Below are positions 39,098 through 62,096 of a stretch of 64,000 bases of DNA, piece after piece. Below the pieces are notes generated by a model. It did no database searches. It saw only the letters and a list, made by a program, of their open reading frames with translations, and was not told the origin of the DNA. Source of the stretch: Gaiellales bacterium (GTDB lineage Bacteria; Actinomycetota; Thermoleophilia; Gaiellales; Gaiellaceae); NCBI GenBank assembly GCA_038237145.1, contig JBBRZA010000002.1, positions 7,202-71,201 on the forward strand. Reading direction: 5' to 3'. Position 1 is the stretch's first letter; each line of letters begins with the position of its first letter. Made by a program: the position numbers and the translations under genes.

Positions 39098-39144
39098 TAG
39101 CCCGAGCGACGGCGCCTGAGCGTCGCTCGCCTGCGGCTCGCTCC

Positions 39145-39171
39145 CGTGAGGGAAACCATGTTTCCCTCACG
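39145..39171 (-). promoter_or_regulatory. perfect palindrome CGTGAGGGAAAC-N3-GTTTCCCTCACG upstream of the GT2 gene; as RNA it sequesters a GAGGG SD-like element and an AUG
   Basis: The 12-bp arms 39145-39156 and 39160-39171 flank the centre CAT/ATG. The minus-strand RNA would be GUGAGGGAAAC-AUG-GUUUCCCUCAC. The AUG opens a 20-codon ORF ending in TAATG on the GT2 start at 39097. Confidence 0.5.
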
Positions 39172-39242
39172 AGCTCCCTTCTTTAGGTGTCGCCTCAGCC
39201 CTCGCGCCGCTGAGATCGCCGCGTGGGCCGAGGAGAACGAGA

Positions 39243-39264
39243 GGGGAAACCTCACGGTTTCCCC
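39243..39264 (-). terminator. hairpin GGGGAAACC-N4-GGTTTCCCC with the wzz-like stop codon in the loop (terminator/attenuator candidate; related in sequence to the 39145-39171 palindrome)
   Basis: 9-bp arms at 39243-39251 and 39256-39264. The loop TCAC is GUGA on the minus-strand RNA. No U-tract follows. Confidence 0.4.
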
Positions 39265-40106
39265 CGCTGCCCCTTCCGTCGCTCATCGGGCAGACGCCGC
39301 CCGATGAGCGGCTCCCACGCGAGCGCCGCGAACAAGCCCACGAGCAGGCCGAGGAACGCCGCGACGACGACCGAGTTTCGGCGGCTCCGTGCGGTCGTCT
39401 TCACCGCCGCCGCGCGCGTGAGCACCTTCGGCCGCTCGACCTCTTCGGCCTGGATCAGGAGCTGCTTCGCCTGAAGCTCGTCGTCGAGGACGTCTGCGAG
39501 GTGAACGCCGAACACCGCCTTCGCGGTCGGGTCACCGGAGCTCTCGGCCTGCCGCTCGATCACAGCAACCTCCTGCTCATCCGCGGCGATGCGTTGCTTC
39601 AGGATGTCGATCTTCTTCTCCGTGTACGGCGCGAGCCGCTGTACGACGAGGCGCGCGAGCGCGTTCGCGGCGACCTGCGCCTTCCGTCTCGTCGCCGCCT
39701 GCACGGTGATCTGAACGAGGGGGTTCGCGGTACGAACGGTGCCCGTTGTGGTACCGGCCGAGATCGTCTTCGTCGAAACGTGGCCACGCAGATCCCCGGC
39801 TCGCATGCCGGCCTGCGTTGCGGCCCGCTGGATCGCGTCCTCCGAGCGGACGATCGTCCCGACGGTCGCCGGGTTCGCCTGCAGGCCCTGGAGAGGGACG
39901 CTGCCGATGACGCTGTAGGGCGCGCCGACGAAGATCGTCGAGCTCGCCTTCCAGACCTGGGAGCCCCCGAGGGAGATGAGATAGCCGATCAGAACGCCGA
40001 CGAGCAACCCGGCGACGGGGAGCCACCAGTGAGCGACGATCGCGCTCCAGTAGCGGCCGAGATCGACTTCCCGCTCGGCTTCGAGATCCACGTCAGGCGT
40101 GTTCAA
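39252..40106 (-). CDS. wzz: Wzz-like polysaccharide co-polymerase / chain-length determinant (PCP family, no kinase domain)
   Basis: N-terminal TM (WWLPVAGLLVGVLIGYLI), a long hydrophilic coiled-coil-like middle section, and a C-terminal TM (VVVAAFLGLLVGLFAALAW). TTG 40106 is in a TTGA overlap with the upstream stop. Confidence 0.7.
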   Translation of the reverse strand: MNTPDVDLEAEREVDLGRYWSAIVAHWWLPVAGLLVGVLIGYLISLGGSQVWKASSTIFVGAPYSVIGSVPLQGLQANPATVGTIVRSEDAIQRAATQAGMRAGDLRGHVSTKTISAGTTTGTVRTANPLVQITVQAATRRKAQVAANALARLVVQRLAPYTEKKIDILKQRIAADEQEVAVIERQAESSGDPTAKAVFGVHLADVLDDELQAKQLLIQAEEVERPKVLTRAAAVKTTARSRRNSVVVAAFLGLLVGLFAALAWEPLIGRRLPDERRKGQRGKP

Positions 40107-53842: not shown

Positions 53843-54982
53843 CTAGCCCGCCGAGACGACGAACGTCTTCGCCGAGAGCCCGCCCGCTGCGTCCCTCGCC
53901 CGGAGGGTCACTCTTGCGGTGCGTGCTGCCCGTGCCGTGCCCGCGATCCTGCCGGTGCGAGCATTGAGCCTCAGCCCCGCCGGCAACGTCCCTCGAACGA
54001 TCGTCCAACGCACGGAGCCAGCGCCGCCCTTCGTGCCCAGCTTGAACGAGTAGGCGGTCCCGACCCTCGCTGACACGATCCGCTTCGTCGAGATGACGAG
54101 CTTCGGCGCGACACGGAACGTGACGGCTGTCGCCTTCGTGTTCCCGTTCGCATCGGTGACCGTGACCTGAGCGGGATACGAGCCCACCGTCGTCGGCGTG
54201 CCCGTGATCGAGCCGCCCCCTCCCACCGACAGGCCGGCCGGGAGGCCGGAGGCCGACCATGCGTACGGGCCCTGGCCACCCGTCGCCGACAGCGAGCCGA
54301 CGTAACGGACGCCGACCTCGGCCGCCCGCGTGGAGACTCTCGCCACCAGTGGCTGGGAGACGTTGAGCGTGTACGTCTTCGTGTCGACGCGCGTGCCGTC
54401 CGCCGACGGATTGGTGCTCACCGCCGTGCCCTTGATGGTGAAGGTCGACGCTCCGACCGCGGTCGGAGTCCCGGAAATCAGCCCCGCTGGCGAAAGCGTG
54501 ACTCCTGCGGGAAGCGACCCGCCGGTGACTTCGTAGGTCACATTCGACTGAATGCCCTGGCCCTGAAGCTGGGACGAGTAGGCAGCGCCGACCGTCGCCG
54601 GCTTCAGCGAATCGGTGGCGATTCCCCATCTGCGTACCCAGATCTCGAACGTGAACAGCAACTCCGCGCTGTTCCCACAGATGTCCTTGAGCGCGATCCA
54701 GGCGGGAAATGTGCCCGGCTCCGTGGGGACACCGCTGACGAGGCCCGTGAGGTTGCTGAAGTTGCCGATCTTCAGGCCCGGCGGCAGAACCCCCGACTCG
54801 ACGACGTAGCGGTACGGCGCGTAGAAGCAGCCGCCGTGGCTGACCATCTTGAACTCGTAGACCTTGCCGACCTCGCCGATCGGCGCCTCTTCGGACTCAT
54901 CGTTGAAGTCCAGAGCCGAAGCGGCGCCCGCGAAGACCCCCGCCAGCAACCCCACGAGCACCACTGCTTTGATGAAGCGCAT
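53843..54982 (-). CDS. secreted protein with about 4 Ig-like (He_PIG / dystroglycan-cadherin-like) repeats
   Basis: Signal peptide MRFIKAVVLVGLLAGVFAGAASA. Repeated ...LPAGL.L...G.ISGTPT..G... units. SD-like AAAGGGG upstream of ATG 54982 (TTG 54985 also in frame). No LPXTG motif and no TM anchor. Confidence 0.8.
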   Translation of the reverse strand: MRFIKAVVLVGLLAGVFAGAASALDFNDESEEAPIGEVGKVYEFKMVSHGGCFYAPYRYVVESGVLPPGLKIGNFSNLTGLVSGVPTEPGTFPAWIALKDICGNSAELLFTFEIWVRRWGIATDSLKPATVGAAYSSQLQGQGIQSNVTYEVTGGSLPAGVTLSPAGLISGTPTAVGASTFTIKGTAVSTNPSADGTRVDTKTYTLNVSQPLVARVSTRAAEVGVRYVGSLSATGGQGPYAWSASGLPAGLSVGGGGSITGTPTTVGSYPAQVTVTDANGNTKATAVTFRVAPKLVISTKRIVSARVGTAYSFKLGTKGGAGSVRWTIVRGTLPAGLRLNARTGRIAGTARAARTARVTLRARDAAGGLSAKTFVVSAG

Positions 54983-55027
54983 CAAGACCCCTTTCTTGAC
55001 AGCGATTTCAGGGGGCCGAGTGTATCT

Positions 55028-55080: not shown

Positions 55081-56235
55081 CTACTTGATGGTGATCGTGA
55101 ACGTCTGCGTGAACGTCGCGCGCAGAGCATCCGTGACGCGGATCGTGACCTTGAGCTTGCCTGCTTTCGTCGGTTTGCCGGTGAGCGCGCCGGTCGTGGC
55201 ACCGAGCTTGAGGCCGGCTGGAAGCTTGCCGAGGCTACGCCACTTCAGCGGCTTCACACCGCCGGTGACCTTGAGCTTGAGCGCGTACGCCTTGCCAACG
55301 GTCGCCGCCTTGAGCTTCGTCGTCGAGATCGCGACATGCGCGGCGACGTTCAGCTTCAGGAGCAGATCCTGCGTCAGGCCTGCTGCGCCGTCGGTGACCG
55401 TGACCTTCGCGGTGTAGAGCCCGGCGGCAGTCGGAGTGCCGCTCAGGACATGCGTGTTGGGATCGAACGTCAGACCCTCGGGAAGGTCCGTGGCCACCCA
55501 GCTATACGTGCCGAGGCCCCCGGTCGCCTGGAAGGCGGCCGTGAACGCCTTGCCCACTTCGGCCGGACGAGTGGCAGGACCCGTGACCTTCAGCGGCTCG
55601 ATGACCTGCAACCCGAACTGCGCGGACTTGGACGAGGTGCCGTTGTTCACCGTGACGGTGACCGTGTAGTTGCCGGCTGCGGTCGGCGTGCCGGTGATCG
55701 TGCTGCCGCTGACGGCGAGGCCGGCGGGCAGGCCCGTGGCGGACCAGCTCTGGTTGCCTCCCCCGGAGGCGGTCAGCGTCTCCGTATACGGAGCGCCGAC
55801 GACACCACGCCGCAGCGACGTCGTCTTGATCGCGAGTGGGGCCGGCCCGATCGTGAGATCGAATAACCGATCGGCTCGATCCCCGAGGCAAGTCGGCGAC
55901 TCGGGAGTCGTGATCGTCACCCAGAACAAGTAGTGGCCGGGAGTGGTCGGCGTGCCCTTCAGCCGGCCGATGCCGCCACTCGCCCCGTCGTTGACGGTCG
56001 TGAGCGTCAGGCCAGGCGCGGGCGTGCCGCCCGTGACGTTGTAGTGGTAGGGCGGGCATCCCGACCGCGCGTACATGTCGAATTGGTACGGCACTTCGGC
56101 GTTGCCGGCAGGGATGACACACGTCGGCTTGCTGTTGTCACACGTCCGGTCCTGGAACGTGAGCGCCGAGGCGCTGCCTGCGGCTGCGCATGCAAGCACG
56201 GCGAACAAAAATGTGAACTGGATCAAGCGTTTCAA
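55081..56235 (-). CDS. secreted protein with about 4 Ig-like (He_PIG-type) repeats, paralog of 53843-54982
   Basis: TTG 56235 is preceded by GAAAGGGG (SD-like, about 8-nt spacing). Signal peptide (M)KRLIQFTFLFAVLACAAAGSASA. Repeats GLPAGLAVSGSTITGTPTAAGNYTVTVTV and similar. A Cys-containing N-terminal module is shared with the paralog. Confidence 0.8.
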   Translation of the reverse strand: MKRLIQFTFLFAVLACAAAGSASALTFQDRTCDNSKPTCVIPAGNAEVPYQFDMYARSGCPPYHYNVTGGTPAPGLTLTTVNDGASGGIGRLKGTPTTPGHYLFWVTITTPESPTCLGDRADRLFDLTIGPAPLAIKTTSLRRGVVGAPYTETLTASGGGNQSWSATGLPAGLAVSGSTITGTPTAAGNYTVTVTVNNGTSSKSAQFGLQVIEPLKVTGPATRPAEVGKAFTAAFQATGGLGTYSWVATDLPEGLTFDPNTHVLSGTPTAAGLYTAKVTVTDGAAGLTQDLLLKLNVAAHVAISTTKLKAATVGKAYALKLKVTGGVKPLKWRSLGKLPAGLKLGATTGALTGKPTKAGKLKVTIRVTDALRATFTQTFTITIK

Positions 56236-56362
56236 GGATGAGGCCCCTTTCTCAACGGCGGCTCGGTCTTCCCCGCCCCCAAATGGCGGCTCGGAAACTA
56301 GCAAGGAAAGGACAGGGTGCAAACGGACCTCACAAATCGCTTACTTCCCAGCACCAATTTCC

Positions 56363-56387: not shown

Positions 56388-56414
56388 AGAATGAGATAGC
56401 GCGAGCGCGATCCC

Positions 56415-57662
56415 CTAGGTCCACTCGAGCAACGGGCGCACGACACCTTGCAGTTGCCCGCTGAACTGGCCGCGCGCGGAGCCGCCCTCCCCCGGGTCGT
56501 GCACGTGGAACGAGATGAGATCGCGCGCCGCAGCATGATGAAAGAGCTTCGTTGGGCCGATCGAGCAGACGTCGACGTGTACGGAGATGAGCCCTTCGTT
56601 CAGGAGGTTCCCGGGGATCCACGCAGTTGCCGTGTAGTCATCCGGCGGGCGCGCTTCGCTCCAGCGCGGGCTCGTGTCCATCGCGTTGAACGCAACGTCG
56701 CCCTTGCCGTCGAACAGCTTGATCTTCGGAAAGATCGGCTCGCCTTGACGCAGCACGGTTACCGCGATCTCGATTCCCACGGGACGGCGGACATCGGCAG
56801 TGTCCGTGCGCGAGCCACTCTCGTCCACGACTCGAACGCGGCGAATGCGCACGAGATCGTCACCGGGGGCCGTAGCGACATTCGGCCATTCCTGCTCGGA
56901 GGTCGAACCATGTCCCATCTGAAGGTACTGCGCGACGACTTCCGTGCTCGGCCCGTCGACCACCACAGCGCCGCCTTCAAGCAGGATCACCCGGTCGCAG
57001 AGCTGCGCGACCGCTTGCATGTTGTGCGAGACGAACAACACAGTGCGCCCCGTGCCGCCGATCTCCTCCATCCGTCCGAGGCAGCGGCGTTGGAACTCGG
57101 CGTCGCCGACGGCGAGGACCTCGTCGACGAGCATGATCTCCGGCTCTAGGTGTGCGGCGACTGAAAAGGCCAGTCGCACGTACATGCCGCTCGAGTAGCG
57201 CTTGACGGGCGTGTCCATGAATTGCTCGATGCCCGAAAACTCGACGATGTCAGGAAGCTTGCGAATGATCTCGCGACGCTTCATACCGAGGATCGCGCCG
57301 TTCAGGAAGACGTTCTCGCGGCCGGTGAGCTCAGGGTGGAAACCGGTCCCGACCTCGAGCAGGCTGCTGACGCGGCCGCGGATCGTCGCGCGGCCCGACG
57401 TCGGCGCAGTAATTCGTGTCAGCACCTTGAGCAGCGTCGACTTGCCTGCCCCGTTGCGTCCGATCACCCCGAGGACCTCGCCCTGGGCGACTTCGAGGGT
57501 GATGCCCTTCAGCGCCCAGATCTCCTCGTGGTGATGGTGTCCTGTCTGGCGAATACGTTGGACGGCGCCTGCGATCGTGTCTCGCAGCGTCCCGTAGCCT
57601 CGCTGCAGCTCGCCGATGCGATAGCGCTTGGAAAGAGCTTCTGCTGTGATCGCCGCCGACAT
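56415..57662 (-). CDS. wzt: ABC transporter ATP-binding protein, Wzt/TagH type, with C-terminal (Wzt_C-like) glycan-binding extension
   Basis: Start ATG 57662 (MSAAITAEALSKRY). Walker A GRNGAGKST, signature YSSGM, Walker B MLVDEVLAVGD, H-loop FVSHN. A further roughly 165 beta-rich residues follow the NBD (VRIRRVRVVDESG...IEIAVTVL...). Confidence 0.9.
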   Translation of the reverse strand: MSAAITAEALSKRYRIGELQRGYGTLRDTIAGAVQRIRQTGHHHHEEIWALKGITLEVAQGEVLGVIGRNGAGKSTLLKVLTRITAPTSGRATIRGRVSSLLEVGTGFHPELTGRENVFLNGAILGMKRREIIRKLPDIVEFSGIEQFMDTPVKRYSSGMYVRLAFSVAAHLEPEIMLVDEVLAVGDAEFQRRCLGRMEEIGGTGRTVLFVSHNMQAVAQLCDRVILLEGGAVVVDGPSTEVVAQYLQMGHGSTSEQEWPNVATAPGDDLVRIRRVRVVDESGSRTDTADVRRPVGIEIAVTVLRQGEPIFPKIKLFDGKGDVAFNAMDTSPRWSEARPPDDYTATAWIPGNLLNEGLISVHVDVCSIGPTKLFHHAAARDLISFHVHDPGEGGSARGQFSGQLQGVVRPLLEWT

Positions 57663-57667
57663 CGCGC

Positions 57668-60244
57668 CTAGATGGTGTCCGCAAACTTGGGCTCGGACCG
57701 CCGGAAGAACGCGAGCCCGAGCAGGAAGATGACGGCTGCCGAGGCGACGCTCACGAGGAACTGGCCGGTGTCGGGAGGAGGCGTTCCGACGAGCGCCCAG
57801 CGAAACCCGGTGATCGCCCCGTTCATCGGATTGGTCGCCAGCACCCACTGCCACTTCAAGGGCAGAGCGGCGATTGGATAGACGACGGACGAGACGTAGA
57901 GCCACGTCTGCACGATGAAGGGGATGACGTACGGCACGTCTCGGTAGCGGACGTTGAGTGCTGAGAAGAACAACCCAGTGCCGAGTGCGGCTGCGACGGC
58001 AAGAACGAGGAACGCCGGAGCGAGGTACGCCATGTCGCCGACGGGCGCGTGGTAGTAGGCCATCAGCCCGACGAGCACTGTGGACGCCATCGCCAGGTCG
58101 ACGATGGGAACGAGCGTCGCGCCCGCGGGCAGCAAGACGCGTGGAAAGTAGACCTTCGTCACGAGCGGGACGTTGGAGACAAGGCTCATGCTCGCGCCGG
58201 TCAGCGCGGACGAGAAGTACGACCAGAGCAGCAGACCGGAGTACAGGAACACCGGATACTGCTGACCCTGGTTCGGGAACTTCGCGAACTTCCCGAAGAC
58301 GAGCGTGAACACGACCATCGTCAGGAACGGCTGCAGGATCGCCCAGGCGACGCCGATGAAGGTCTGCTTGTAGCGCACCTTGACGTCGCGCCAGACGAAG
58401 CGTCCGAGCAGTTCTCGGTAGTGCCACAGTTCGCGGAGGTCGAGACGAGGCCAACGCGCGGCCGGCCGGATCACGGTCACACGGTCAGGTCGGAGCGCAA
58501 GGGCATCGCCGACCCGCTCGACGGCCCGCCTACCTGCGGATCTCGTTGGTTTTGGCTCGGCGACCGCGCCGTCGGGAGAGCGGCTCACCGGGTCGATGCT
58601 ACCCCGCCCCGTTTCGCCTCGACGGCGGGCCCTGGTGCCGAAGAGCCCTGCGGCGGCGAGCAGGATGAACGAGGGCGCAACCGGCACCTCGTACTCGGGG
58701 ATCGCGTAAACACCCAGCACGGTCGCAAGGAGGAGCAGCAGCGACGAGGCCACGAGGATCGCCGGGACACGCCAGGACTGCGGACGCCGCCAGACGAGAG
58801 CACCGATTCCAAGCAAGAGCCACAGCCAGGAGCGCGGAAACGCCTTGGACGCGTGATTCAGCTGCAGTCCAAGCCAGCTGCTCTCGCCACGCGTCGGGAA
58901 GCGGTCGCCAAGCTCACGCAGACGCTCGTTCAGCCGGTCGTAGCGCCGCTGGTCGCGCGGATCCTCGAACACGATGTCGTGCGCCGTCGGCGACGTCCAG
59001 ACCTCGTGGATGTGGTTGTCCGGCGTCGAGGTGTACGCACCCTGGTGCGCCGCCGGAATCGGCTCGCCCTCGGTCGGGACGGGGAGTGGCGTGCCCTGCT
59101 TGGGCGTACTCCGTGCCGCAGCAGACGGGGCCTTTGTCGGCGCGGGAGCTCGCGGCGAAACGTAAAGGGGCTGATTCAACTCGTCCCACATCGACCTTGC
59201 CACGCCGCGAACGTACTTCGCAGGGTGCCGGCGCACCGCCTCGCGCGCTGCTCGGCCGAGCACCTCGTAGTCGGTGTTCCAGCCGAAGACGCGGTCGGAC
59301 AGGCTGATCAGATCTTCCTCCATGCGCGGGCTGCCCGAGGCGAAGAACTCGTGCAGGTCGATCCCGTAAGACCGATACGGCTCGCGCGGCAGCAGATCCC
59401 TCTGCACCGCCGCGGCCAGCCGGCGTGACGCCTGGCCGTAGTCCGGCGACATGATCCGGTCGGTCACGAAGGCGCGAAAGAACGGCACGCTCGCCTGCCC
59501 GCCACGGGCGACCGTGAAGTCGTCGTACCGCAGATCGTTCACGCCTGCCCAGGCCACGAGAGGCAGCACTGCCGCAGCCGCAAACGCAGCCGCATGCGCG
59601 GCCCGAAGGCGCCAGGGCTCGGAGACGACGAACGCGAACACTGCACCGAGCACGAGCGCCTGGTTCGCCGGTCGGGTGAGCGCAAGGAACGCCACGCCCG
59701 CGCCTGCCGCCGCGAAGCGGTACGCGCTCGGCCGCTCCACCGCTCGCATGACGAGGACCGCCCAGCCGGCGAACACGATCGCGAAGACAACATCGCTGGA
59801 GAGCTGGTGGAAGAGACCGCCGTAGCCGGGAAAGAGGAGGAGCGCCACAGCGACGAGGAGGGCGGCGCGGCGGCCGGCAACACGCAAGGCGACGAAGCTC
59901 CAGGCGAGGATCGACGCCGCGAAGAGCAGAGCCATCAGGACCTCGGCGAAGAGACCCCCGCCTGCCTCGAGCAGGCCTCCCACGAAGAGGGGCGTCACCG
60001 GCGTTCGGGTCAGCATCGCCCACGGAAAGACGGGATGGTCCTGCCCGAGCTGGATGTAGTACCGCAGGTAGACGCCCAGGTCGCGGCCGGGTCGAAGCGC
60101 CCAGCCGATGCTCTCGAACGCATAGACGGCCAGGGCGATGACGACGAGGAGGGCGGCGCCCCGGCGCGTGCCCGCAAGCCGCTCGAGGCCCTGGAACACC
60201 GGGACGACACGCGTACGGAATGCGGTCGTCCGCGCCGAAGGCAT
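57668..60244 (-). CDS. wzm: fusion protein: N-terminal roughly 590-aa GT-C-like polytopic domain with periplasmic module, plus C-terminal ABC-2 (Wzm) permease
   Basis: One uninterrupted 858-codon frame. The last roughly 268 aa (57671-58474) are a typical Wzm: LRELWHYRELLGRFVWRDVKVRYKQTFIGVAWAILQP followed by 6 TM helices. The first roughly 590 aa have 9 or more TM helices, a roughly 200-aa hydrophilic loop and 1-2 further TM helices. Confidence 0.8.
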   Translation of the reverse strand: MPSARTTAFRTRVVPVFQGLERLAGTRRGAALLVVIALAVYAFESIGWALRPGRDLGVYLRYYIQLGQDHPVFPWAMLTRTPVTPLFVGGLLEAGGGLFAEVLMALLFAASILAWSFVALRVAGRRAALLVAVALLLFPGYGGLFHQLSSDVVFAIVFAGWAVLVMRAVERPSAYRFAAAGAGVAFLALTRPANQALVLGAVFAFVVSEPWRLRAAHAAAFAAAAVLPLVAWAGVNDLRYDDFTVARGGQASVPFFRAFVTDRIMSPDYGQASRRLAAAVQRDLLPREPYRSYGIDLHEFFASGSPRMEEDLISLSDRVFGWNTDYEVLGRAAREAVRRHPAKYVRGVARSMWDELNQPLYVSPRAPAPTKAPSAAARSTPKQGTPLPVPTEGEPIPAAHQGAYTSTPDNHIHEVWTSPTAHDIVFEDPRDQRRYDRLNERLRELGDRFPTRGESSWLGLQLNHASKAFPRSWLWLLLGIGALVWRRPQSWRVPAILVASSLLLLLATVLGVYAIPEYEVPVAPSFILLAAAGLFGTRARRRGETGRGSIDPVSRSPDGAVAEPKPTRSAGRRAVERVGDALALRPDRVTVIRPAARWPRLDLRELWHYRELLGRFVWRDVKVRYKQTFIGVAWAILQPFLTMVVFTLVFGKFAKFPNQGQQYPVFLYSGLLLWSYFSSALTGASMSLVSNVPLVTKVYFPRVLLPAGATLVPIVDLAMASTVLVGLMAYYHAPVGDMAYLAPAFLVLAVAAALGTGLFFSALNVRYRDVPYVIPFIVQTWLYVSSVVYPIAALPLKWQWVLATNPMNGAITGFRWALVGTPPPDTGQFLVSVASAAVIFLLGLAFFRRSEPKFADTI

Positions 60245-60276
60245 CGCGGGGCGCGATCATACTGGTGAGCGTTCCG

Positions 60277-61449
60277 ATGTCGTCGTCCGTGCAGATCTCC
60301 GTCGTCATCCCCTGCCTCAACGAAGAGGAGGCGGTCGGCGCCGTCGTGGACCAGGCGTGGGAGGGCATCCGGCGGTCGGGCCGCGAAGGCGAGGTCATCG
60401 TGGTCGACAACGCCTCCAGCGATCGCTCCGCCGAGGTCGCCGCCGAGCACGGCGCGCGCGTGGTGTCCGAGCCCAGACGCGGCTACGGGAGCGCCTATCT
60501 CGCAGGCCTCGCGGATGTGCGCGGGGAGTACGTCGTGATGGGCGACGCAGACGAGACCTATCCCATTCAGGAGCTCGGACCGTTCGTCGACCGACTGGAG
60601 CAGGGTGACGATCTCGTGCTCGGCTCGCGCTTCAAGGGCAAGATCCACGGCGACGCGATGCCGTGGCTGAACCGGCGGATCGGCAACCCGATCCTGACGG
60701 GGCTGCTGAATCTCTTCTTCGGCGTCAAGGTGTCGGACGCACATTGCGGTATGCGCGCCGTGCGCCGCGACGCGCTGCGCACGCTCGACCTCCATGCGAC
60801 CGGAATGGAGTTCGCCTCCGAGATGGTCTTCAAGGCGTACCGACGCAGCCTGCGCGTGAGCGAGATCCCGATCGACTATTTCCCGCGCGTCGGCGAGTCG
60901 AAGCTGAACCGCTTCGGCGACGCCTGGCGACACGCGCGGTTCATGCTCGTCTACAGCCCGAGCTGGCTGTACTTCCTTCCGGGTGCGATCCTGCTGGTGC
61001 TCGGACTCGTCGGCGCCGTCGTGCTCGCGACGGGACCGGTCGACATCTTCGGACGAACATGGGAGATCCACACCATGCTCGCCTGCATCGCGGCGACGCT
61101 CGTCGGAGCGCAGGTCGTCCAGCTCGGGCTCTTCGCCCGGACGTATGCGCTCGTGCACCTGAACGAGCACGACCCGCTCGTGGACCGCCTGCACTCGCGG
61201 ATGAGGCTGGAGCACGGGCTCATCCTCGGGTTCGGCCTCATGCTCGCCGGGCTCGTGATCGTCGGGATCATCTTCGGCGAATGGGCGGCGGGCGGCTTCG
61301 GCCGGCTCGGTCATGCGCACGCAACGGCGCTCGGCTTCACGCTGTTCGGCCTCGGCGTCCAGGTCGTGCTCGGCTCGTTCTTCCTCAGCCTCCTGACCAT
61401 GCGCTGGGCCGGCACGCCGTTCGAGGCGAACGGGCGCCGAGCCGCGTGA
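60277..61449 (+). CDS. GT2 glycosyltransferase with C-terminal 4-TM domain (paralog of 35194-36459)
   Basis: ISVVIPCLNEEEAVG, IVVDNASSDRS, VVMGDADETYP, LGSRFKG, DAHCGMRAV, then hydrophobic helices. Start ATG 60277; alternative GTG 60265. Confidence 0.85.
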   Translation: MSSSVQISVVIPCLNEEEAVGAVVDQAWEGIRRSGREGEVIVVDNASSDRSAEVAAEHGARVVSEPRRGYGSAYLAGLADVRGEYVVMGDADETYPIQELGPFVDRLEQGDDLVLGSRFKGKIHGDAMPWLNRRIGNPILTGLLNLFFGVKVSDAHCGMRAVRRDALRTLDLHATGMEFASEMVFKAYRRSLRVSEIPIDYFPRVGESKLNRFGDAWRHARFMLVYSPSWLYFLPGAILLVLGLVGAVVLATGPVDIFGRTWEIHTMLACIAATLVGAQVVQLGLFARTYALVHLNEHDPLVDRLHSRMRLEHGLILGFGLMLAGLVIVGIIFGEWAAGGFGRLGHAHATALGFTLFGLGVQVVLGSFFLSLLTMRWAGTPFEANGRRAA

Positions 61450-62096
61450 GCGGCGCTGCGTACGTCCCCCTCAACACGCGGCCGTACGGAGGGCACGAGC
61501 GACTGCTCGCGCTCACCGGCTCGCCCAAGCGCGTGCTCGATGTCGGCTGCTCCTCCGGCTACCTCGCCCGCCGGCTCGTGGAGCGCGGGGCGACGGTCGT
61601 GGGCATCGACACGGACGAGCATGCCGCCGCGGAGGCTCGAACGGTCTGCGAGCAGGTGCTCGTCGGAGACGTCGAGTCGATGGAGCTTCTCTTTCCGGAG
61701 CAGTCGTTCGACGTCGTGCTCTGCGGAGACGTGATCGAGCACCTGCGCGATCCGGAGGCCTTCTTCAAGCGCGTGCGCCCTCTGCTTCGCCCGGGCGGAA
61801 GCCTCGTGCTGACGACGCCGAACGTGGCCAACTGGGCGATGCGGCTCGGGCTCCTCGCGGGCCGCTGGCAGTACACCGACCGAGGCATCCTCGACCGCAC
61901 GCACACGCATTTCTTCACGAGGAAGACGCTCGAGCAGACGCTCGAGCGAGCCGGCTACCGCATCGTCGCGTTCGACGTGACCGCGCCGGTCCCGGGCATC
62001 GGCACGCCGATCGTCGAACGCGCCGCGCATGCGCTGGCGCGGCTGCGTCCATCGTTGCTCGCGTACCAGTTCGTCGTCGCTGCGACGCCGCGGTGA
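61446..62096 (+). CDS. class I SAM-dependent methyltransferase
   Basis: GTG 61446 in a GTGA overlap. VLDVGCSSGYL, FDVVLCGDVIEHLRDP, GSLVLTTPN. Confidence 0.8.
   Translation: MSGAAYVPLNTRPYGGHERLLALTGSPKRVLDVGCSSGYLARRLVERGATVVGIDTDEHAAAEARTVCEQVLVGDVESMELLFPEQSFDVVLCGDVIEHLRDPEAFFKRVRPLLRPGGSLVLTTPNVANWAMRLGLLAGRWQYTDRGILDRTHTHFFTRKTLEQTLERAGYRIVAFDVTAPVPGIGTPIVERAAHALARLRPSLLAYQFVVAATPR

Follow-up and report, generated by a model that had tools for sequence, protein, structure and literature searches.

The question raised by this locus is whether a membrane glycosyltransferase (GT) and an export permease have been joined into one protein or only appear to be joined. The locus lies in the window, by which we mean the whole stretch of 64,000 nucleotides (nt) of contig JBBRZA010000002.1 (assembly GCA_038237145.1, positions 7,202 to 71,201) from a Gaiellales bacterium, where an open reading frame (ORF) of 858 codons contains a module resembling GT-C glycosyltransferases followed by a Wzm-type ABC-2 (ATP-binding cassette) permease. 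The original prediction, which was made from the sequence alone, took this stop-free frame for a fusion that would physically couple glycan export to an extracytoplasmic transfer step. The frame is present in the sequence as described. Our comparison with relatives indicates, however, that two normally separate genes have very probably been merged by one extra G, which arose either as an error in this metagenome-assembled contig or as a very recent mutation of the strain, and that no evolved fusion is involved. The two origins of the extra base, sequencing or assembly error and real mutation, appear to us about equally probable.

The extra base was found in a short G-run, where the window reads GGGGCGGGGTAGC and the relatives at loci L001, L002 and L003 read GGGGC-GGGTAGC. 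It falls at codon 547/548 of the ORF, 18 nt ahead of the TGA stop codon used in the relatives, and would have put the GT-C frame into the stop-free frame of wzm, giving the 858 codons. The GT-C frame is shifted from codon 548 on and its TGA (58587..58585) is read through in the window. Residues 548-552 are GSIDP in the window and VASTR followed by a stop in the relatives, while the ORF beyond them corresponds to Wzm, starting at residue 553 with the natural N-terminal extension of 36 residues (553-588). The GT-C-like module thus comprises residues 1-552, and the module boundary has to be moved from the earlier estimate of about 590 residues because residues 553-588 belong to the N-terminus of Wzm. 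When one G was removed in silico, a 552-residue protein was obtained with the C-terminus GETGRVASTR*, the same as that of protein P0001, and the GTGA stop/start overlap with wzm was also restored. The fusion junction therefore depends on a one-base indel relative to the split relatives, unlike an ordinary in-frame linker.

Both modules are coding, as the GC content at third codon positions (GC3) is about 0.8-0.9 throughout each of them, with a dip to 0.68 (0.70 at second positions) only at the junction, residues 541-600. The stretch at residues 548-570 is also coding and not a linker because more distant Wzm representatives align from these query residues. In the 5-kb core consisting of the GT2 gene, the GT-C-like gene, wzm and wzt, only two indels were observed relative to L001, namely the extra G and one in-frame 3-nt indel at the start of wzt, and the extra G is the sole one that breaks a frame.

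Relatives of the protein were found to be split without exception. The whole 858-residue protein was used as query and gave 685 matches, of which the best 120 were taken for the homolog counts. None of these 120 was a GT-C-Wzm fusion; they are about 490-570 residues long, have identities of up to 94% and align with the query over residues 1 to about 545 only, and the one size outlier among them, of 1070 residues, does not reach the Wzm module either. An exhaustive phmmer search of 1.84 billion representative proteins returned no protein with matches to both halves among its top 150. There is a single record of the exact 858-residue protein, which is located on an NCBI contig of 81,077 nt. Its 90%-identity cluster has 111 members, and those others that were read are mainly stand-alone Wzm, mostly of 306 and some of 270 residues; these come from Gaiellaceae metagenome-assembled genomes (MAGs) and metagenomes, several of them on 15-28 contigs. 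Motifs of both modules were observed only in P0121, the protein of the window itself, among all proteins fetched. The tail GETGRVASTR or a one-residue variant of it was found in 14 of the 40 closest homolog clusters and nearly all others stop earlier. No publication on a fusion of Wzm with a GT-C enzyme was found in the literature searched.

The same picture was obtained from the genes. Among 80 genome loci encoding relatives, which belong to Gaiellales, Gaiella and a few Solirubrobacteraceae MAGs, not one was fused to wzm. L001 and L003, the latter on a 175-kb MAG contig, are syntenic with the window over the GT2 gene, the 552-residue gene, wzm, wzt and the genes of the He_PIG proteins, and the 552-residue gene and wzm were called separately in both. 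The allele with three Gs (GGG) is also found at this site in L006 and in the metagenome contig L084. A metagenome scan with the plain junction 21-mer gave one contig, again L084 with its 3-G allele, and no hit was obtained with a variable-gap pattern that covered both alleles. Since it was seen in one assembly only and all relatives examined are split, the fusion is a singleton and not an evolved design. The proposal of an evolved fused architecture fails on this point, as the orthologs are all two genes, an outcome that the original prediction had itself named as speaking against it.

The junction between the two genes was observed to vary among relatives, with a GTGA overlap in L001 and L006, a gap of 11 nt in L080 and a gap of 55 nt in L010. 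Only in the closest relatives and two others does wzm lie directly downstream of the GT-C-like gene; it is 1.7-2.3 kb off in five loci and absent within 4 kb in about 65. Adjacency of the two genes is confined to few lineages. The neighbours were counted over 83 loci of the GT-C-like gene, where a GT2 synthase was present nearby in 57, Wzm in 12 and Wzt in 11. The GT-C-like gene has its conserved partner in the divergent GT2 synthase and not in Wzm.

Some further variations were noticed in these relatives. In L003 (7764-8577; the same as L005, MAG MFD00392.bin.2.64, contig_1865) wzm is broken and only a remnant of 63 residues was called; compared with the window, this relative has a 1-nt indel near position 57860. 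Single-base indels in the gene pair are therefore not peculiar to the assembly of the window. Another MAG contig, CAWHXK010000034.1, contains two paralogous GT-C-like genes a few kb apart (L007 and L014; 78% and 82% identical to that of the window) and a wzm-wzt pair 1.9 kb downstream of the second copy only. In addition, the two closest syntenic contigs, L001 (9848-10927) and L003 (9833-10912), have a gene of about 1.1 kb for an NAD-dependent epimerase/dehydratase that separates wzt from the first He_PIG gene, and the window is without it (56401-56415).

The assignment of the N-terminal protein to the GT-C type, which had been proposed on account of a build like that of ArnT, is supported by its family, its predicted fold and a conserved acidic residue. 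Of 70 family members, 58 match Pfam PMT_2 (PF13231) at E-values up to 0.1 (best 8e-08), although the copy of the window scores 18.2 bits (E 0.0031) under a cut-off of 26.1. Several homologs have a precomputed PF13231 match and several are named ArnT-like by JGI. The AlphaFold (AF2) model, with a mean predicted local distance difference test score (pLDDT) of 87.7 and a predicted template modelling score of 0.88, shows about seven transmembrane (TM) helices, a loop of about 230 residues and then three TM helices. This agrees with the polytopic module and the hydrophilic Pro/Ala-rich loop described from the sequence, the disordered Pro/Ala stretch being located inside the loop where the pLDDT falls below 50 (residues 367-381). 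A Foldseek comparison of the model with the PDB gave almost exclusively GT-C enzymes, with ArnT in first place (5f15, E 1.5e-4) followed by STT3, AglB, Pmt1/2/4, ALG9, Emb, AftB/D, PimE and PglB. The top probabilities are about 1.0, but the template modelling scores (TM-scores) are merely about 0.3 and the identity to ArnT is 14-15%. As far as the PDB is concerned the GT-C link comes from fold comparison, because a profile search of the family against PDB sequences gave nothing at E-values up to 10.

The catalytic acidic residue of GT-C enzymes sits just after the first TM helix (TM1). In the present family, residues G53, R54 and D55 are invariant in 70 sequences and are located in the first outer loop, 6-8 residues past the helix at 27-47 (TM1). 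The loop domain of about 230 residues was also modelled alone (pLDDT 70) and gave no significant PDB match (best E 1.1) and with it no clue to the acceptor. The C-terminal tail is probably cytoplasmic, as is the N-terminus of Wzm, since it is rich in arginine and follows the three TM helices after the large loop; this placement combines the model with the positive-inside rule.

In four other Gaiellales genomes we observed that the GT-C-like ORF is in frame with a second polytopic GT-C domain, GT87 (PF09594, E 6e-22). The loci are L020:4001-6721, L022:4001-6730, L033:4001-7762 and L067:4001-6946, with P0162 (929 residues) and P0178 (972 residues) among the proteins, and in L033 a third domain of the GT4 type comes after GT87. 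Judged by their sequences, these GT-C/GT87 fusions look recurrent and genuine.

The C-terminal module is recognised by Pfam ABC2_membrane (PF01061) over residues 616-818 with 63.1 bits (cut-off 26.9), as expected from its earlier description as an ABC-2 permease. An equivalog-level match to Wzm was not reached, with 49 bits for NF050109 (cut-off 380) and 28.6 for KpsM (cut-off 300), and the protein is assigned by such profile matches as Wzm-like at family level only. The in-frame GTG codons at 58480 and 58474, which had been put forward as possible starts of a separate short Wzm, do exist together with a third at 58588, which is the start used by homologs. The spacing to wzt was also given correctly, as its ATG (57662) lies 5 nt past the TAG stop of the 858-codon ORF. 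The extra domain at the C-terminus of Wzt is weakly Wzt_C-like, at 17.4 bits and under the cut-off.

A different N-terminal fusion of Wzm was noticed in P0238 (655 residues) and P0244 (644 residues), where a GT4 (GT-B) enzyme precedes a Wzm part that is about 50% identical to that of the window. These two proteins represent separate 50%-identity clusters and the GT4-Wzm fusion is therefore a recurrent one.

How the extra G should be understood depends on the character of its site and on the state of the DNA around it. The gain of one base in a homopolymer is both a classic sequencing or assembly error and a classic spontaneous frameshift, and either would merge two normally separate genes. Some observations speak against such a simple merger. 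No other indel breaks a frame in the roughly 10 kb of coding DNA that were compared, the Pfam domains of the neighbouring genes are intact, and for these reasons the assembly is not obviously error-prone. A fused GT-C-Wzm chain is also probably feasible in its topology, as the C-terminus of the GT-C part and the N-terminus of Wzm are both predicted to be cytoplasmic. We considered a generally error-prone assembly as the source and found it unsupported for lack of any other frame-breaking indel, which leaves room for an error at this single site. These same observations would suit a reading in which the G is real and a working 858-residue GT-C-Wzm protein is made, a fusion of recent origin by which a side-chain glycosyltransferase would be tethered to the exporter. 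Only five residues of the GT-C tail are changed, the neighbours of the sole frame-breaking indel in the core are intact, the likely position of the GT-C C-terminus fits that of the Wzm N-terminus, and natural N-terminal fusions of Wzm exist in P0238 and P0244, but with a GT4 domain. We nevertheless regard this reading as unlikely. Hundreds of related sequences include no second case of the fusion, and a homopolymer is a typical place for sequencing or assembly errors. Furthermore, Wzm acts as a dimer in Wzm2Wzt2, and the complex would have to fit two bulky modules of ten TM helices each.

An evolved and conserved fusion that couples export to extracytoplasmic glycosyl transfer would account for the uninterrupted ORF of the window and for the fact that both modules are true domains. 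Its probability is close to nil, since every relative examined is split, in most species the 4 kb around the GT-C-like gene contain no Wzm, and the whole arrangement hangs on one inserted base. The split and the fused state could also be imagined as two settings of a programmed switch, operated by ribosomal -1 frameshifting or by phase variation through strand slippage at the G-run. It is true that wzm in the relatives is in the -1 frame with respect to the GT-C-like gene, that this frame contains no stop over more than 60 codons ahead of the junction, and that the junction DNA hardly varies between close relatives. This low variation is accounted for by the coding of the N-terminal extension of Wzm, which can be aligned with more distant Wzm, and the junctions of the more distant L010 and L080 differ and contain gaps. 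No slippery heptamer of the form X XXY YYZ is present at ACG GGG CGG GTA, and runs of 3-4 Gs are far below the tracts known to vary in phase, which are far longer. We have rejected the switch, in either form, on the missing heptamer, the short run and the differing distant junctions, and consider it highly improbable.

We therefore return to a pair of genes merged by one extra G, and this has a practical side. In a genome of 68% GC, one homopolymer indel near a stop codon can join overlapping genes into a convincing pseudo-"fusion", and a comparison with close relatives reveals such merged frames immediately.

The gene that accompanies the GT-C-like gene in most relatives encodes a GT2 protein resembling polyprenyl-phosphate-sugar synthases. 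Its NCBIfam matches are of the AglJ, Dol-P-hexose transferase, PpgS and ArnC types, all under the equivalog cut-offs (70 bits for the ArnC model), and a GT2_TM_C domain is present in the GT2 orthologs of L001 and L003. The start codons of the GT2 gene (60277, forward strand) and of the GT-C-like gene (60244, reverse strand) are 32 nt apart (60245-60276 in the window; the same in L001:5969-6000). Two conventional promoters with leaders do not fit into this distance, and the two transcripts may be leaderless or their promoters may lie within coding sequence.

The surrounding 30 kb form a glycan island that contains several GT2 and GT4 genes, a 715-residue GT2-GT4 enzyme, epimerases, an ATP-grasp enzyme, methyltransferases, a GHMP kinase with nucleotidyltransferase, a weak Wzz-like protein and two secreted He_PIG repeat proteins (Table 1). 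A Pfam scan found no GtrA or Wzx flippase among ORFs of at least 200 residues at 33-64 kb, smaller ORFs being outside the scan. The He_PIG proteins could be located at the cell surface and are possible glycosylation targets. We also noticed that about 200 nt over the junction of the methyltransferase and GT2 synthase genes (L001:4603-4805) have a second copy, 80% identical, about 22 kb away at 39110-39312 of the window.

Table 1. Positions of the features discussed, numbered from the first letter of the window (aa, amino acids)
Feature	Coordinates	Strand	Remarks
858-codon ORF	57668..60244	-	Uninterrupted frame; GT-C-like module, then Wzm module
G-run with one extra base, source of the fused frame	58602..58605	-	GGGG here, GGG in relatives
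GT-C-like (PMT_2/ArnT-like) membrane glycosyltransferase gene	58585..60244	-	552 aa in relatives; homologs of 537-566 aa; assigned from homologs, fold and Pfam family
wzm, ABC-2 permease	57668..58588	-	306 aa from GTG 58588, overlapping the GT-C TGA (GTGA); 270 aa from GTG 58480
wzt, ABC ATPase	56415..57662	-	415 aa; ABC_tran 70.8 bits; TagH/Wzt-type NCBIfam matches
GT2 polyprenyl-phosphate-sugar synthase-like gene	60277..61449	+	390 aa; Glycos_transf_2 97.7 bits; C-terminal TM helices
SAM-dependent methyltransferase gene	61446..62096	+	216 aa; Methyltransf_23 102 bits; directly downstream of GT2; syntenic in L001 and L003
Two tandem genes of secreted He_PIG/PKD Ig-like repeat proteins	53843-54985, 55081-56322	-	Directly downstream of wzt; syntenic in relatives
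ORF with weak Wzz (chain-length determinant) match	39252..40106		Adjoins the second copy at 39110-39312

Building on the observed indel, the split relatives, the membership in the GT-C fold, the identity of Wzm and Wzt and the pairing of GT2 with GT-C, we infer as follows which donor and acceptor the system uses and on which side of the membrane it acts. The ancestral and general state is very probably two genes, one for the 552-residue GT-C glycosyltransferase and one for the 306-residue Wzm permease. Cytoplasmic GT2 and GT4 enzymes of the island would build a polyprenol-linked glycan, and Wzm/Wzt would export this lipid-linked glycan. In parallel, the GT2 synthase would load a sugar onto polyprenyl phosphate and, after flipping of the lipid-linked sugar, the GT-C enzyme would pass the sugar on to an acceptor located on the outer side of the membrane. 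The donor is most likely the polyprenyl-phosphate-sugar made by the adjacent GT2 enzyme, as suggested by the gene pair. Among possible acceptors the exported glycan is the most likely one, a protein being the alternative. In the lineage with the 4-nt GTGA overlap, the arrangement of stop and start codons suggests that the GT-C enzyme and Wzm are coupled in their translation. A coupling of export to extracytoplasmic glycosylation, as originally proposed, is thus plausible at the operon level in the closest relatives with their GTGA overlap, while an evolved physical fusion is refuted.

The locus is an ordinary multi-component transmembrane glycosylation pair beside a Wzm/Wzt exporter. What it adds is an uncharacterised, Gaiellales-specific GT-C family of the PMT_2/ArnT-like kind that is paired with a polyprenyl-phosphate-sugar synthase, and with it the known extracytoplasmic decoration of cell-wall glycans exported by ABC transporters would be extended to the Thermoleophilia, an under-studied class. 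Should the G be genuine and the 858-residue protein functional, it would provide 'Rosetta-stone' evidence that the GT-C enzyme acts at Wzm/Wzt and decorates the glycan on its emergence, and close relatives would reach the same coupling through the gene pair with GTGA overlap.

The individual parts of this locus can be compared with several known systems. As in the WzmWzt exporter of A. aeolicus (PMC9445017) and in TarGH, an ABC-2 permease is followed, here after 5 nt, by an ATPase with an extra C-terminal domain. Unlike in those exporters, Wzm has its 36-residue N-terminal extension (306 residues in all) and shares one ORF with the gene upstream of it in this single assembly, and the Wzt_C score is under its cut-off. 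The GT4-Wzm fusions P0238 and P0244 also have a glycosyltransferase N-terminal to Wzm, but theirs is a soluble cytoplasmic GT-B enzyme and not a polytopic GT-C, and their fusion is recurrent whereas the one in the window is a singleton.

ArnC and ArnT are an undecaprenyl-phosphate-L-Ara4N synthase and a GT-C transferase that acts on lipid A. The pair studied here resembles them in that ArnT is the best structural match of the GT-C-like protein, that an aspartate is present in the first outer loop after TM1 and that the neighbouring GT2 matches the ArnC model at 70 bits, though far under its cut-off. It differs from ArnT in the TM-score of about 0.3 and the identity of 14-15%, and in its soluble domain, which is an internal loop here and C-terminal in ArnT. 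Furthermore, we take the organism of the window to be an actinobacterium without lipid A.

A known analogue is found in Gram-positive bacteria, where a GT-A synthase of C55-P-sugars and a GT-C enzyme of the PMT_2 type decorate polymers that are exported by ABC transporters (PMC8035078). Examples include GacI/GacL with the GacDE exporter in S. pyogenes, CsdA-F in L. lactis, GtsA/GtsC in B. anthracis and CsbB/YfhO (PMC8035078). The present family departs from these systems in being restricted to Gaiellales, with a loop of about 230 residues that has no structural match and is followed by three more TM helices. The pair is away from Wzm/Wzt in most relatives and, among the ORFs of at least 200 residues that were scanned (smaller ones being outside the scan), it has no GtrA or Wzx flippase nearby. 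It nevertheless has the composition of multi-component transmembrane glycosylation systems, with a membrane-linked GT2 synthase beside a polytopic GT-C of the PMT_2 type such as GacL, CsdD/F and GtsC. The pairing of GT-A synthase and GT-C enzyme is of the GtrB/GtrC or GacI/GacL type and is kept as a divergent pair in the 57 of 83 loci noted above. In the window, as in the Gram-positive systems, this pair is clustered with a Wzm/Wzt-type (TarGH/GacDE-like) exporter and with many cytoplasmic glycosyltransferases.

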